The translations under genes were made by a program, and so were the position numbers. Below the pieces are notes generated by a model, which did not search any database, was not told the origin of the DNA, and saw only the letters and a list, made by a program, of their open reading frames with translations. A DNA stretch of 64,000 nt from a virus. Its lineage: Duplodnaviria; Caudoviricetes. Below, piece after piece: positions 29,177 to 53,648 of this stretch (its first letter is position 1; every line of letters starts with the position of its first letter). Location: IMG/VR virus record IMGVR_UViG_3300028048_000040, positions 160,001 to 224,000 of that record. One strand, 5' to 3'.

Positions 29177-29264
29177 ACTTTGATATAAGTATATACTATT
29201 TAAGTGTAGGTGTCTTATGACACCTACACTAATTTGTTTTATGAGATAGAAAGGAAGAGATAAA

Positions 29265-29681
29265 ATGCAAAATTCACCAGTAGATGATTACAGTGCACAA
29301 GATTTCAAAGATTTATCAGAAAGATGTATAAGCGAAGAAAAGAAGGATAAGATAACTAACCAATGTATATTGTCTAAGCTCATAAGTGATATACGATTTG
29401 AAGTCGCTATCAATAGTTTTGATGGTTTTACTAGCTGTAATGTATGTGTTAGTCACAATATACTACCAGCACCAAAAGAAGTATTGGAAGAAGTGATGGG
29501 TTATATTAAGAATTACTTCGAGGTTCTGGACTTTGATGTTACTATTAAAGATAATATAATATCTCTTGATTGGTCCAATGCAAATGAAGAAGATATGGAT
29601 AATGTAAGATATCAGAATATGCATAAACAAGGTAAAAAACAGCATGCTCCGAGAAAACATAATTTGAAGGTGATAAAATGA
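29265..29681 (+). CDS. Hypothetical protein, paralog family A
   Basis: SAQDFKD...LDFDV...ISLDWS; early promoter 29190. Confidence 0.7.
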   Translation: MQNSPVDDYSAQDFKDLSERCISEEKKDKITNQCILSKLISDIRFEVAINSFDGFTSCNVCVSHNILPAPKEVLEEVMGYIKNYFEVLDFDVTIKDNIISLDWSNANEEDMDNVRYQNMHKQGKKQHAPRKHNLKVIK

Positions 29682-48715: not shown

Positions 48716-49810
48716 TTGTCTTATCTTAAATTCAATGAATATAATTCTCCTTGGTCTACAAGAATGAATACTTTTATATCAGAAGATGATATTGGTGTAA
48801 ATTTATCTAGTTGGAATTCTGGAGAAATTAATACATTATTTATCACTGGCATTTCTGGATCTGGTAAAACTACTCTAGCTAAAAAGTATGCTAAAGATTT
48901 TAAATGTACTAAAGTACATCTAGATACATTTTGGCATATGGGATCTTTATCTTTAGATAAGATTAAAGCTTGGTGTCCATTAATATACCAATACATAGAT
49001 GAAGGTAGGGTAGATAAAAATTGGCTAAAACCATATTTAGCTAAGAAAAAGAAATCTTGTATTTCTATTTCTGATTATAAAGAAATAAGAAACACTCTTT
49101 ATAAATTTTTGGATTGGTGTCTTAAAAAGAAAGAAAGAAAAGTAATAGAGGGTGTAGATATTGCTGAATATGTTATAATTAGGCAATTATTAGAATATCC
49201 TATTATACTTAAAGGGACTTCAAAATATCATTCATTAGCTAGACGTTGGTCTAGAGATTGGGATCGTTTTAAGAAATCTGATAGAACTTTCTTATCGCAA
49301 TTAATAGATGATAAGGTTGTCTATGATATGTGGGAAACTGAACAAAACCATCTAAGACAAATCATACTTCATAGGAATGCAGAAATGACAACCTTAAAGG
49401 AATCTGTAGGAACATATCAAGATTCTCTTTCTATATATAATTCTCTTACTCCACAAGAAAAGAAATGGTGTTCTCCTTCAGGTAGATTTATAGATTCTCC
49501 TATATTGATTAGCAGACAAATAATCTATGATAGAAATAGACCTGCAGCATTTGGTGAAGTATATAAATGGAATGGTAAATCTAAAAATGTTGGTTTTATT
49601 GTATTAGCCGTACATAAAAATCATAGAGGAAAAGGATATGCTAGACAAGTCATAGATAGATGTATAGCCGAGATAAAACAATTAGGATATAATAGACTTA
49701 TCTATAGAGTAGATATAGAAAATACAGCATCTATTAGACTTGCTGAAAGATATGGATTTGAACTTACTAAAGAAAGTAAAGGTTATAAATCATTTAAATT
49801 AGATATTTAA
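48716..49810 (+). CDS. P-loop kinase-GNAT acetyltransferase fusion with MSYLKFNE leader
   Basis: GISGSGKTT, HLD, IEG; LAVHKNHRGKGYA and NTASIRLAERYGF. Confidence 0.8.
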   Translation: MSYLKFNEYNSPWSTRMNTFISEDDIGVNLSSWNSGEINTLFITGISGSGKTTLAKKYAKDFKCTKVHLDTFWHMGSLSLDKIKAWCPLIYQYIDEGRVDKNWLKPYLAKKKKSCISISDYKEIRNTLYKFLDWCLKKKERKVIEGVDIAEYVIIRQLLEYPIILKGTSKYHSLARRWSRDWDRFKKSDRTFLSQLIDDKVVYDMWETEQNHLRQIILHRNAEMTTLKESVGTYQDSLSIYNSLTPQEKKWCSPSGRFIDSPILISRQIIYDRNRPAAFGEVYKWNGKSKNVGFIVLAVHKNHRGKGYARQVIDRCIAEIKQLGYNRLIYRVDIENTASIRLAERYGFELTKESKGYKSFKLDI

Positions 49811-49959
49811 GATAAATTATACCTATATATAAAAAAGAATAGGTTGCGTGCCGGACAACCTATTCTATGAAGAGTAAATCTGAATAACATAAAACCGAGT
49901 ATTTAGATTTGCTGTTAAATATACCTCCTTAAAGGTAAACAAGTATATAAATTAGCCGT

Positions 49960-50145
49960 CTATTTATGAGTCTTCATGAAATCATGAATATCATTAAGAA
50001 CAGCTAATTTGATAAACTCTTCAGCAATGCCTGATGATTCAGCTTTAGCGGTGGGGCCAAAACTGAATACTTCGGGCATTTCATACTCTTTATCTAATAC
50101 AGACAAAGGGTTCTTACGTCCACTTAGGACAAACCGATTGTACAC
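49960..50145 (-). CDS. Small hypothetical early protein
   Basis: AAGGAGGTG RBS, GTG start, early promoter ~50198-50207 on -. Confidence 0.65.
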   Translation of the reverse strand: MYNRFVLSGRKNPLSVLDKEYEMPEVFSFGPTAKAESSGIAEEFIKLAVLNDIHDFMKTHK

Positions 50146-50372
50146 GGTTATCACCTCCTTTAGTTTCAGAGGTTATTCTTATCTATTCTTCATGACTATA
50201 GTATATATCTGAAACTAAAGACTCCCTAGGGTATACACCCTAGGGAGTTTAATTTTATGACTTAGAGATATTATAACATTATATTAGACTAAGAATATTA
50301 CAAATCATATCAATATTCCCTAGGGTATTATACCCTAGGGGAAATTATTATTATTATTAGGGGGAAGAAAAT

Positions 50373-50873
50373 ATGACAGCACAAGTAATAACTGCTCCAG
50401 AAGATGAGTTGAATAGGTATATACCTGTATTTCTTGCTGGAGGAATAACCAATTGTAAAGATTGGCAATCAGAAGTGATAGAAGAGCTAATAGATGAAAA
50501 AATAACAATCTATAATCCTAGACGAAAGTATTTTGATATAACAGATAAAAATATATCTTATGAACAAATTGAATGGGAATTTAGACAACTAGAATATATG
50601 GATATCTTTAGTATATATTTTTGTGGTGGTGATTCAATTCAGCCAATCTGTATGTATGAATTAGGAAGAAACATTATCCGTATGCAGAATAGATTTCCTA
50701 GTGATTGGGAAAAAAGAATAGTTATCAGTTGTGAGGTTGATTATATAAGAAAAGAAGATGTAATCATTCAGACAGAACTAGCTACACATAATAAAGTGTT
50801 TGTAGAACATAATGCTACTCCTAAACTACATGCTCAGTATATTAAGAGAGCTATTAGAAATATAAAAAGATAA
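50373..50873 (+). CDS. Nucleoside 2-deoxyribosyltransferase-like protein / dNMP N-glycosidase
   Basis: VFLAGGI...WQ, IYNPRR, QIEWE, PICMYELG. Confidence 0.8.
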   Translation: MTAQVITAPEDELNRYIPVFLAGGITNCKDWQSEVIEELIDEKITIYNPRRKYFDITDKNISYEQIEWEFRQLEYMDIFSIYFCGGDSIQPICMYELGRNIIRMQNRFPSDWEKRIVISCEVDYIRKEDVIIQTELATHNKVFVEHNATPKLHAQYIKRAIRNIKR

Positions 50874-50882
50874 ACAAAGGGA

Positions 50883-50972
50883 TTCCCCTAGAGCTTAATA
50901 GCTCTAGGGGCATGCAAAATGAAGTATTTAGTTATTGATCGTGTATACCATAGGCAGAGCGCATAAACGATC
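50883..50972 (-). ncRNA. Candidate ~90-nt sRNA
   Basis: Promoter TACA-ATATAG-TG (50983-50972), 5' hairpin GATCGT...ACGATC, UUCAUUUUGCAU, terminator 50885-50910. Confidence 0.5.
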
Positions 50973-50994
50973 ACTATATTGTACATAGAACTAT

Positions 50995-51136
50995 AAAAAA
51001 TAACACCCAGAGTTTGTAAGAACTGAATCATCCAACTATTCAATTTCTCTGAGTGTTATTGTAGGGGTATTGACTTAGGTTGAATCACTTTCACTTATCT
51101 AGTGATAATTTACTTATGATTCTATACCCCTATATC
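50995..51136 (-). ncRNA. Candidate ~140-nt two-hairpin early ncRNA
   Basis: Early promoter 51152-51143; stems 51124-51132/51062-51070 and 51047-51060/50999-51012; U tail. Confidence 0.55.
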
Positions 51137-51169
51137 ATATATATAATATATAAATGAAAAACTAGACTA

Positions 51170-51279
51170 AAACTACCCCTAGATCCATATAGATCTAGGG
51201 GATAGTAAAAAGAAAGGAAGAAATAAAATGAATGTAATAATGTGGAGAAATTATGAGAAATTTTAGAAAGGAATTGATT
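51170..51279 (-). ncRNA. Candidate ~110-nt sRNA with three anti-RBS tracts
   Basis: Promoter TACT-TATATT-TA (51290-51279); terminator 51176-51201. Confidence 0.55.
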
Positions 51280-51353
51280 AAATATAAGTAGACTCTATTA
51301 TAACTTTTGATTGACTTTATGTAAATAGTTATATATTATAATGATGAAAGGAG

Positions 51354-51608
51354 TTGAAAGTTATGGATATTGATAAAATAATGAACGATTCTAATCCAGA
51401 ACTTGAGAAAGAACTAAGAAAAGAATTTGAAGACCATTTTAAAAATATTGATTATAGTGAGCACGTATGTGGAGATATGGAAATCTATTCAGATTTTGAA
51501 ATTTTTAAAAAATATAGAAAGATACAAAAAGATGCTGAGAAAAATGGTCTAACGATAGAGCATATAAATGCTATGAATACTTTGAGTTGTCAAGCTATGT
51601 CTATATGA
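51354..51608 (+). CDS. Hypothetical protein
   Basis: Promoter 51330, AAGGAG RBS. Confidence 0.65.
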   Translation: MKVMDIDKIMNDSNPELEKELRKEFEDHFKNIDYSEHVCGDMEIYSDFEIFKKYRKIQKDAEKNGLTIEHINAMNTLSCQAMSI

Positions 51609-51634
51609 AGAGGAGGGATAACCCTCCTTTATTT

Positions 51635-52621
51635 TTATTTGATAGGTTGTTTATTTTTAGCTTTTCTTATAGTATCTTCATCTAATTTAGGAATTGGTTT
51701 ATTTTTAACGCCTTTATCTAATATTCTATGTCTCATGTCTTTAAAACGATCTGGAGCTGAACTATCATTCTTGTCTTTTGTATTAGCAGCTACTACATGG
51801 GCATTATATTCTGTTGGGTTAGTATAATATTCATTTTTGGCTTTATTTAAAGCAACCTTTGCCTTTGCTGCTTCAGGATTGTAGAGATGAGGATTTTTTA
51901 TCTTATCTTTAGCTTCATCATATTCTTTTTGTGCTTTTTGAGCATTGTATGATGCCATTCTATTTTTTAATTCTAATTCTCTAGCAGCTTTTTTACCATG
52001 AGTTTTCTCTACATAAACACTATCTTTAATATGAGTAGTTTCATGATTCTTAGATTTCATTTTACCTAGCAAAATATGATCTTTTACTTTTTCTTTTAGT
52101 TCTTCATCATCAACACCAATATTATCTGTTCTATGTGCGTTCTTATTAATATACATAGTTTTTCTAACAGTATTAGAAGCAGCTTTGGAACTTTGTTCTA
52201 TAGGAGTCTTCTGATTTGGATCTCTTTCCTGCACTGCTTTGACATATGCTGGTTTGGTACTATTGTCATTTTCGATTGATGAATATACTCCTAAATGTAT
52301 ACCAGGATTTTTAGGATTCTTTACACCAATAGGAAGTTTTCTCTTAAGAGCCAATCTATTAAGTTTCTCATTATTTAAGTTTTGTCTTAAAGTAGCATTA
52401 GATTCTGACGCTTTGCTAGCATCCTCTTTATTCTCGAATTCTCCTAAGTTATTTGGTTTGACTTTTCTATTTCTGTTCCCTTGTACTTTCTTTCCATCTT
52501 TTACAGGTTCTAAATCATTTCTAGTAGGAGAAGAAGTCAATTTCAGTTTCTGGTATTTTCTATTATGAGAATCCTCTAATAAATAATTTGATAAACTTTT
52601 ATCAATATATAAATATGACAA
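51635..52621 (-). CDS. Basic protein with HExxH motif and MSYL leader
   Basis: AAGGTG RBS, TTG start 52621; HETTH...PTEYNAH. Confidence 0.6.
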   Translation of the reverse strand: MSYLYIDKSLSNYLLEDSHNRKYQKLKLTSSPTRNDLEPVKDGKKVQGNRNRKVKPNNLGEFENKEDASKASESNATLRQNLNNEKLNRLALKRKLPIGVKNPKNPGIHLGVYSSIENDNSTKPAYVKAVQERDPNQKTPIEQSSKAASNTVRKTMYINKNAHRTDNIGVDDEELKEKVKDHILLGKMKSKNHETTHIKDSVYVEKTHGKKAARELELKNRMASYNAQKAQKEYDEAKDKIKNPHLYNPEAAKAKVALNKAKNEYYTNPTEYNAHVVAANTKDKNDSSAPDRFKDMRHRILDKGVKNKPIPKLDEDTIRKAKNKQPIK

Positions 52622-52684
52622 TTTAATAACCACCTTTCTATGTATTATATATTTTAGTATATAATACATAAACAACATTTTATT

Positions 52685-52847
52685 ACATCTAAATAAGACA
52701 CAGTGTGGATGCGAATCGAGAACAATATAGGGTTGCTGTTAAGAAGAATCATAATAACAAGTTCTTAGTTTGCTATTCATTTGTGTCACCTACTTACATT
52801 ACAAATTTAAATATAATTCCCTTAGGTGAAATATCCTAAGGGAGTTT
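52685..52847 (+). ncRNA. Candidate long-hairpin sRNA
   Basis: Promoter AACA-TTTTAT-TA 52674; irregular stem GACACA...TGTGTC; terminator 52817-52842. Confidence 0.55.
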
Positions 52848-52907
52848 ATATTGTCTTACAAAAATGTACATTTCCCCTAGGCTATGATTAGCCTAGGGGA
52901 TATTCTT

Positions 52908-53648
52908 TTATTCTCTATGCAATCCTTTCTGTTCTGCATTTTGTTTCTTCAATGTTCTTGGTAAGAAGTAATCTGTATTTACCAAATTAGATTGAATATG
53001 TGCAGATAATAAATATGCTGATATTAGATTTCTTGCTATGGAATCAGAGTTGGTCACTTCTACTTCACTCATACTAACCTGACCCTTAGCATTTATCTCA
53101 TTATAGAATTCATTCTTTGCATTCATTGCATCACCACGGACTGTTATCAATTCATCCATAGTGTTTTCTAGATTCATGACTGCTAATGATTCTACTTCTC
53201 TGTCTGATAGCTGTGAGTTCTTATCTGTATCAATAAGATTACCAGTCTTATAATCTCTCTTAGATATATCAGTAGAGAATGCTGATTTCTTTACTACCAT
53301 CTGTTTCATTCTCTTTAATGGTAGATATACTACGCAGACTTTCTGACTCTTTACTGGTACACCATCAGAGTTGGTATATAAGAATGGCATATTTACTTCT
53401 TCATTTATTGGTACATTTATAGATTGTAGAGCTTTCATAATAGTATCCATAGTAGGATCTATCTCAAATGGTTTATACTGGAACTTAAGAGGGAAGTCTT
53501 GTTTGAAAAAATCATAGAATTGTTTATCATTCATTTTAGCAAACTTCTTCTTATAGTATTCAGTGTTTTGACCAGTTGGATCCATGATATTCATCACATC
53601 ATAGATTTTCTTCTCTACTTTCAATCTCTTATCTTTTGTTATAGCCAA
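52908..53648 (-). CDS. Virion RNAP beta extreme C-terminal fragment (phiKZ gp176-like)
   Basis: VYLPLKRMKQMVVKK...KTG...LSDREVESL...ELITVRGD parallels the RpoB C-terminus GEMEVWAL...EMLTVKSD. Confidence 0.6.
   Translation of the reverse strand: MAITKDKRLKVEKKIYDVMNIMDPTGQNTEYYKKKFAKMNDKQFYDFFKQDFPLKFQYKPFEIDPTMDTIMKALQSINVPINEEVNMPFLYTNSDGVPVKSQKVCVVYLPLKRMKQMVVKKSAFSTDISKRDYKTGNLIDTDKNSQLSDREVESLAVMNLENTMDELITVRGDAMNAKNEFYNEINAKGQVSMSEVEVTNSDSIARNLISAYLLSAHIQSNLVNTDYFLPRTLKKQNAEQKGLHRE

Follow-up and report, generated by a model that had tools for sequence, protein, structure and literature searches.

A conserved non-coding block of about 84 nt, located on the minus strand just 5' of an intrinsic terminator hairpin (T1) in a phage genome, is read here with about even confidence as a clade-specific 3'UTR element whose two invariant UUCCUUUCU tracts may mask Shine-Dalgarno (SD) sites, either in cis or in trans. 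The anatomy of the block and of T1 is well supported by the comparison of related loci. The source record is a 342,328-bp phage with 31.6% G+C, and the window, meaning the whole stretch of 64,000 nt that was analyzed, comprises bases 160001-224000 of that record. The 246-aa product of a minus-strand gene near the block matches the phrog_3233 'RNA polymerase beta subunit' family (E 8e-39), which makes this a jumbo phage with its own multisubunit RNA polymerase (RNAP) genes. No Rfam family was matched anywhere in the 64-kb window at the gathering threshold, and permissive thresholds applied to positions 49700-51450 returned noise only (E up to 5). A tRNA/tmRNA scan of the window likewise found none, and a blastn search of GenBank phages with the region gave no match.

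The comparison draws on 11 related loci. The closest complete relative, a 332-kb phage (locus L008, genome G001), was reached through the RNAP-beta fragment, a 1.3-kb metagenome contig (L010) was reached by DNA pattern, and nine further loci (L023-L031) were taken from the 90%-identity protein cluster of RNAP-beta. When used as search queries, the 166-aa gene returned non-syntenic phages only, and the 84-aa and 347-aa genes returned no relatives. The block is single-copy in the genome according to both BLAST and an nhmmer profile, and the same searches for paralogues in the two complete genomes yielded nothing beyond RBS-like or hairpin fragments. The features discussed below are collected in Table 1.

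Table 1. Positions of the block, its parts and the surrounding signals (window numbering unless marked as genome numbering)
Feature	Position	Strand	Remarks
Conserved non-coding block, ~84 nt	51207..51290	-	Present in 11/11 related loci; predicted unstructured
aSD-like tract A, RNA UUCCUUUCU, + strand AGAAAGGAA	51265..51273	-	Identical in 11/12 sequences; within the 27-nt segment
Middle tract, anti-GGAGAAATTATGAGA	51244..51258	-	Overlaps a variable patch
aSD-like tract B, RNA CUUCCUUUCU, + strand AGAAAGGAAG	51211..51220	-	Invariant wherever the sequence reaches the 41-nt segment
Linker between block and hairpin, 5 nt, hypervariable	51202..51206	-	Seven versions among the 11 sequences reaching the linker
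Terminator hairpin T1, 11-12 bp	51176..51201	-	Covariation; terminator call restricted to the minus strand
U-rich tail of T1, UAGUUUUAGUCUAGUUUUU	51157..51175	-	Merges into the next promoter
Phage-type promoter, core ATATATTAT-N4-ATGAT	51126..51156	-	Matrix score 20.5 in the window (core 51151), 31.3 in L010
Sigma70-like TTTACA-17-TATAAT	51297..51325	-	Upstream of the block; in sequence of the window-type arrangement only
RNAP beta-fragment gene	52908..53648	-	phrog_3233 and synteny; block directly 3' of its stop in L024, L026-L030
Phage promoters in the window	e.g. 3212, 12618, 29188, 44074, 46036, 51331	+	Position matrix
Phage promoters in the window	50206, 51151	-	Position matrix
Phage promoters in the window, further examples	59033, 60052		Position matrix
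ACAATATA(T/G)TAG sites, window	38446, 50982, 52854	-
ACAATATA(T/G)TAG sites, genome numbering	23239, 240641, 313446, 323959	+
ACAATATA(T/G)TAG site, genome numbering	65460	-

The consensus fold of nine sequences consists of hairpin T1 alone, and the block remains unpaired in it. Among ten sequences, 13 of the 85 block columns vary; 11 of these are grouped in two patches, leaving 2 variable columns among the other 74. In RNAP-beta, also compared in ten sequences, variation affects 3.6%, 2.0% and 30% of first, second and third codon positions, and by this measure the constraint on the block equals that on the amino-acid-changing positions of the neighboring essential gene. Such a substitution pattern demonstrates purifying selection on the block. 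Its invariance is not simply the result of recent descent or a sweep, because the adjoining 5-nt linker occurs in seven versions.

UUCCUUUCU is contained in each of two conserved segments, a 5' segment of 27 nt (RNA sense UACUUAUAUUUAAUCAAUUCCUUUCUA, + coordinates 51264-51290) and a 3' segment of 41 nt (RNA sense CUCCACAUUAUUACAUUCAUUUUAUUUCUUCCUUUCUUUUU, 51207-51247) that is altered by one substitution in L031 and one 1-nt deletion in L030 and nothing else. A Firmicute-type 16S rRNA has this same 9-mer at its very 3' end; the host's own 16S may differ. Both copies thus match the anti-SD (aSD) of 16S rRNA of this type and are free of predicted structure, and the likeness fits the SD consensus of the phage, AAAGGAGG, which is of the extended type. 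The initial annotation had described a multivalent element with three pyrimidine tracts, complementary to the + strand sequences AGAAAGGAATTG at 51265-51276, GGAGAAATTATGAGA at 51244-51258 and AGAAAGGAAGAAATAAAATG at 51211-51230. All three lie at these positions, and the two outer pyrimidine tracts, which are complementary to extended SD sequences, are invariant in 11-12 relatives. A threefold valency is not upheld, since the middle tract is not conserved: it reads UUUCUCC in the window, L010 and L008, AGGCUCC or AGACUCC in 8 of the 11 other sequences, and UUUCUCU in L031.

The block region also stands out by composition. No other C-free run on the + strand of the 342-kb genome is as long (97 nt here, 80 nt for the next), and nowhere else in the genome does a stretch of 100 nt contain two TCCTTTCT/AGAAAGGA copies. 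Within genes, TCCTTTCT is found 8 times on the sense strand and 20 times on the antisense strand, yet it occurs twice in the block. The other long C-free runs inspected were mostly ordinary promoter, leader or RBS regions on the sense strand. A Rho-loading site on the G-free minus strand was considered and rejected, as the G-free character is not retained in most relatives and the RNA is U-rich, not C-rich.

The + strand contains the two 12-codon ORFs of the initial annotation (MNVIMWRNYEKF and MRNFRKELIKYK), whose lengths are not conserved in the relatives. ORF1 reads MNVIMWRNYEKF or MNVIMWSLYEKS and is broken in three relatives: L008, L030 and L031 retain only 9, 2 and 5 codons, respectively. 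ORF2 varies from 12 to 57 codons, with a variable stop and unrelated tails that run antisense into neighboring genes. Neither the maintained frame and length nor the coding-type substitutions of a leader peptide are found, and conservation of the block lacks codon periodicity and covers all codon positions of every frame. The minus-strand frame has no start codon in the window and meets a stop after 10 codons in L008; a type I toxin-antitoxin system or other minus-strand small ORF was rejected because the candidate of 29 codons is intact in L010 only. The comparison of frames confirms that the element is non-coding.

The same observations bear on the possibility that the + strand is the functional one, either as a leader with a 5' hairpin and two strong RBSs for micro-ORFs or as a vestigial gene start. 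SD-spacer-ATG geometry is good at two sites, the C-free composition is typical of sense promoter, leader and RBS regions in this phage, true leaders with tandem SD-like sites occur in a relative (L021), and gene 29265 itself shows the order promoter-hairpin-SD. This reading is nevertheless extremely unlikely given the truncation of ORF1, the variable length of ORF2 and the absence of substitutions of synonymous type. In addition, no + promoter lies upstream (the best score is 7.7, and this site is missing in L010 and L008), the downstream + strand is the antisense of the RNAP gene in most relatives, and a variant of T1 gives a C.A mismatch on the + strand.

Double compensatory changes are seen in 3 of the 12 pairs of T1, such as GATCC/GGATC to GAGTC/GACTC in L025 and an outer C-G to G-C in L010. 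The variant just mentioned, a one-sided change of C-G to U-G that is present in the window only, leaves a wobble pair on the minus strand. The T content of the tails (5.6 versus 4.9 per 10 nt) is a weak strand indicator in this genome and was for that reason not relied on. Covariation, the U.G pair and the U-rich tail show that the RNA strand ends in an intrinsic terminator, T1, a feature that a free-standing sRNA would also have; the first two confirm the minus strand as the predicted RNA strand of the element. The antisense function favored by the initial annotation is supported in its strand by the T1 covariation and by the U.G pair, which is unique to the minus strand. The terminator that it had placed in front of the + ORFs is a real hairpin, but it is a terminator of the minus strand and not of the + strand.

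In most relatives the block is, by its position, plain 3'UTR on the strand corresponding to the window's minus strand. It starts about 18 nt past the RNAP-beta TAA in six contigs (L024, L026, L027, L028, L029 and L030), and in L008 and L010 a minus-strand cargo gene (a GNAT gene and a 190-aa gene, respectively) is placed between RNAP-beta and the block and ends 12-20 nt before the latter. T1 is the first hairpin after the stop codon in both the RNAP-beta-stop and the cargo-stop arrangements, and in all of these loci a stop codon precedes the block and the first same-strand terminator follows it. L023 and L025 are arranged as in the window, with a 325/347-aa gene followed by an opposite-strand 81/84-aa gene, and L031 carries a 74-aa gene. 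In the window, L023 and L025, the opposite-strand gene of 81-84 aa, which has its own terminator, separates the upstream minus-strand gene from the block, so minus-strand transcription of the block would there require read-through or an unrecognized promoter.

Since the gene contents upstream vary among relatives, the block is the fixed border of a cargo hotspot. The hotspot spans window positions 51294-52907 and the equivalent sites of L008, L010 and L023-L031, with at least five contents: none; GNAT; 190 aa; 55 plus 325/347 aa with an opposite-strand gene of 81/84 aa; and 74 aa. The inserted ORFs of L008 and L010 begin with MSYL, their ATG overlapping the RNAP-beta stop (ATGA), and window genes 48178 and 48716 have the same MSYL start and ATGA overlap. 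Relatives at 60-71% protein identity have the order stop-hairpin-promoter and lack the block, so it is a lineage-specific addition that is dispensable for the phage family; for the same reason these relatives contributed no extra covariation. The last codons of RNAP-beta (window 52908-52935) read CAGAAAGGAUUG in the block-bearing clade only, with other codons in distant relatives. Both UCCUUUCU tracts are complementary to the AGAAAGGA within these 3' codons, and in the centroid fold of L024 this AGAAAGGA is paired with tract B. The co-occurrence of this AGAAAGGA and the block carries no statistical weight, because it represents one phylogenetic event.

The location of the block at the right-hand border of a hotspot with at least five contents agrees with the main rival of SD masking, namely a protein-binding or recombination-flank role. 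Here the block would be a recognition platform with only incidental aSD likeness: a site for an RNA-binding or 3'-processing protein, an aid to termination by the phage polymerase, or a site at the DNA level such as a fixed flank for the recombinational exchange of cargo genes. Its conservation over 41 + 27 nt reaches far past the SD-complementary cores, the phage genome offers no evident specific partner for pairing, and modules of a hairpin plus a promoter flank variable genes genome-wide. However, a recombination flank need not be invariant to the single base while the adjoining 5-nt linker and T1 vary. Some 140 other terminators do without such a block, with a distance from stop to hairpin that is mostly below about 30 nt, and two exact aSD-like 9-mers on the transcribed strand are very unlikely by chance. 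The platform is accordingly weighed as possible, though rather unlikely. The PeSL (promoter-early stem-loop) cassettes of T4-type phages, which flank shuffled genes, offer a partial parallel, in that T1 is followed directly by a phage promoter and borders a cargo hotspot; the 84-nt block, in contrast, is without a PeSL counterpart and is single-copy in the genome.

Transcription signals were evaluated with a position matrix for the phage promoter class GTAAAC-N12-ATATA[CT]TAT-N4-[AG]TGAG, which has about 79 sites scoring >15 genome-wide. Nearly all of these are intergenic and lie 30-100 nt 5' of same-strand genes, in many cases immediately past a terminator hairpin. The approximately 140 perfect hairpins in intergenic regions are typically located less than about 30 nt from a stop codon, and such a promoter often comes directly after them. 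Relatives of only 60-70% protein identity share the core motif. The promoter that follows the T1 tail begins the next minus-strand unit, a two-hairpin RNA running from 51130 to 50990, and its sequence is also found behind T1 in L023, L024, L025, L029 and L030. The 84-aa gene has a + strand promoter, at 51331.

These signals bear on the sRNA candidate of the initial annotation when it is read as a free-standing gene: a late RNA of the minus strand, about 125 nt long, made from a promoter of its own and acting in trans, with three tracts that mask the RBS and AUG of specific phage mRNAs, chiefly that of early gene 29265. The sigma70-like promoter, which matches at 11 of 12 positions, would start an RNA at the conserved 5' edge of the block, and AACA-N6-TA, which resembles the late-promoter pattern of phage AR9, is found just 5' of the block in L008, L024 and L026. 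However, matches of 11/12 to the sigma70-like motif number 24 in the genome against 24-42 in shuffled sequences and fall mostly inside genes. Because it is not enriched over shuffles, TTTACA-17-TATAAT is weak evidence, and it is probably not a functional part of the element. The phage promoter matrix found no match on the minus strand at 51260-51400, and no conserved promoter was found 5' of the block, where the upstream sequence differs among the four arrangements and no promoter element is common to them. Together with the 3'UTR context in most relatives, these results speak against a free-standing sRNA gene.

Two further promoter candidates were tried and rejected. A degenerate early promoter, GTAAAC-N12-ATATTTAAT, at the 5' edge of the block departs from the invariant core at three positions, and the matrix reports no match for it above the cut-off. 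For a second (late) promoter class before the block, the window has ATAATAGAGT, without the C, and the relatives differ. A possible second class of this kind, ACAATATA(T/G)TAG, resembles the AACA-N6-TA late promoters of phage AR9; ACAATATA is intergenic in 10 of its 49 occurrences. Near-identical tandem pairs of promoter modules were also observed at three distant places of the genome (303997/304076, 125647/125568 on the minus strand, and 218955/219033, the last corresponding to window 58955/59033), with GTCTGAGG(A/G)AGGAATAG and tiny ORFs coming after each pair.

The target named in the initial annotation was gene 29265, which has a phage 'early-type' promoter at 29188. Positions 51211-51230 do equal 29248-29267, the RBS and ATG of this gene, at 19 of 20 nucleotides, and the sole A/G difference becomes a G.U pair with the minus-strand RNA. 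To place this match, all 20-mers ending at the start codon were compared among 359 crudely called gene starts. A 19/20 partner among the other starts was found for 6 of the 359 by RBS likeness alone, and an 18/20 partner for 14, so such a match is an event of about 2% per tract and about 5% for three tracts. An SD of the AAAGGAGG type, a spacer rich in A and the ATG are common to such sites and account for the match, which is unusual but not compelling; the remaining near matches of the 20-mer genome-wide are ordinary RBS-like sites.

Duplex prediction leads to the same assessment. With RNAduplex, the block pairs with the 359 TIRs at a mean of -16.3 kcal/mol (sd 4.6), and gene 29265 ranks fourth at -27.5. 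In a subsample of 180 TIRs, the shuffled block pairs slightly worse than the block itself, whereas the antisense of 25 ordinary TIR regions reaches minima of -24.6 to -39.8 against -32.8 for the block. Anything with an RBS-like complement is thus automatically 'anti-RBS', because ordinary antisense TIRs pair as well or better. In G001 the block is unchanged and the homologue of 29265 reads AGAAAGGAAGAACAAGATG / UAGAAAGGAAGAACAAGAUG with a different spacer, leaving 12 contiguous matching bases (the 12-nt SD core) and no compensating change. The complementarity is therefore not kept across relatives beyond this core, and specific pairing with 29265 is not supported in view of the antisense-TIR controls and the divergence in G001. 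Neither a profile search nor RNAduplex against the 359 TIRs made any specific pairing partner stand out in the phage genome. The rank of its target, its pairing within the antisense-TIR range and the unconserved middle tract, added to the lack of a promoter, make the free-standing sRNA very unlikely despite the 19/20 complementarity. General SD pairing by the block is possible.

For the preferred reading, the following sequence of events is proposed. The block would be transcribed on the minus strand as the 3' end of an operon that ends with RNAP-beta or with inserted cargo, and T1 would close the transcript as a covarying intrinsic terminator. The unpaired UUCCUUUCU tracts, as copies of the aSD end of 16S rRNA, would then base-pair with Shine-Dalgarno regions. 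In the cis version, the tracts would pair with RBSs of their own long mRNA and lower its translation and stability; in the trans version, the 3' end would be released as a stable fragment protected by T1 and would pair with mRNAs having strong SDs. An SD-masking role is favored because TCCTTTCT is depleted on the sense strand while two exact copies are kept in the block, and because there is a precedent in Bacillus. Three observations speak against it. Predicted pairing of the block with the operon's own RBSs (-11 to -25 kcal/mol) is no better than the genome average, the opposite-strand gene intervenes in the window, and the conserved segments are overlong; the 41-nt segment in particular exceeds the length that aSD pairing calls for, a hint of some other partner or of a protein.

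The precedent comes from Bacillus subtilis, in which an RBS is bound by aSD-like pyrimidine 8-mers even if these are located several hundred nt 3' of it. The pairing accelerates decay and prevents initiation, and native genes are depleted of such sequences (Gill et al., 2025; PMC12697547). The phage element is similar in presenting unpaired pyrimidines like the 16S 3' end, hundreds of nt past the RBSs of the same transcript, and the genome shows a corresponding sense-strand depletion. It differs in that the Bacillus cases are synthetic 8-mers or avoided sequences, whereas the phage has two conserved copies in a natural 3'UTR within a longer invariant block, and in that its predicted duplexes with own-operon RBSs are not above average.

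A second parallel is the icaR mRNA of Staphylococcus aureus, where a UCCCC motif in the 3'UTR pairs with the SD of the mRNA's own 5'UTR. Both systems have a C/U-rich anti-SD motif in the 3'UTR, 5' of the terminator, and a strong-SD translation system of Firmicute type. The icaR mRNA, in contrast, is monocistronic and forms one specific 5'-3' duplex, while the cargo of the phage operon varies and no specific duplex is evident. The icaR 3'UTR is itself targeted by the sRNA RsaI, which like RsaE/RoxS and RNAIII belongs to the Firmicute sRNAs with C/U-rich seeds that mask SD sequences (review PMC9266662), and sRNAs derived from 3'UTRs, such as CisR, use the terminator of the mRNA itself (PMC13250501). 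The phage element shares with these sRNAs several SD-complementary pyrimidine motifs, a 3' terminator hairpin and possible release from an mRNA end. The sRNA motifs, however, are usually located in hairpin loops, while the phage body is predicted to be fully unstructured, and the sRNAs, unlike this candidate, have mapped 5' ends, promoters of their own or processing sites.

An extension of the trans version, which is quite improbable, is that the released T1-protected fragment acts as a mimic of the 16S 3' end and forms a two-site 'Shine-Dalgarno sponge' late in infection. The block, arising from the late mRNA of the RNAP operon, would in this case compete with ribosomes for AGAAAGGA-type SDs of host or early phage mRNAs. 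We know of no phage RNA of this kind, and a sponge, if real, would reprogram translation late in infection.

Several observations were made on the neighboring units. The two-hairpin non-coding RNA behind T1 (window 50990-51156, minus strand) has its promoter core at 51151 and stems at about 51124-51062 and 51059-51000, followed by U6; among six relatives, most of its one-sided changes turn C-G or G-C into a G.U wobble on the minus strand, the same bias as in T1, and 6 pairs show compensatory changes. A further minus-strand unit at 49836-50210 comprises a promoter core at 50206, an SD (AAGGAGG), a GTG at 50145, an ORF of 61 codons that ends at 49960 and, at 49866-49836, a terminator with a T6 tail. 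The promoter sequence of this unit is kept in L008, and the crude gene calling had chosen a + strand ORF that overlaps it. L008 lacks the part at window 50247-51155, which consists of a 166-aa gene (PF15891, nucleoside 2-deoxyribosyltransferase-like) followed by a structured region. The 166-aa gene is a mobile cassette bounded by CCCTAGGG-type hairpins, because its homologues occur in unrelated, non-syntenic phages.

The regulatory RNAs of jumbo phages are barely charted, and transcriptomes of phiKZ-like phages list sRNA candidates without functions (PMC11512511). The block is a computationally well-delimited candidate of this sort, being single-copy, non-coding and constrained, with two exact copies of the aSD end of Firmicute-type 16S rRNA. 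It also marks the fixed border of a cargo hotspot behind an RNAP gene, which is useful for understanding and engineering gene exchange in these phages. If it acts on SD sites, it would be a case in which long-range aSD-RBS repression, as recently described in Bacillus, is used in nature under positive selection, and it would help to explain how a phage adjusts or switches off translation.
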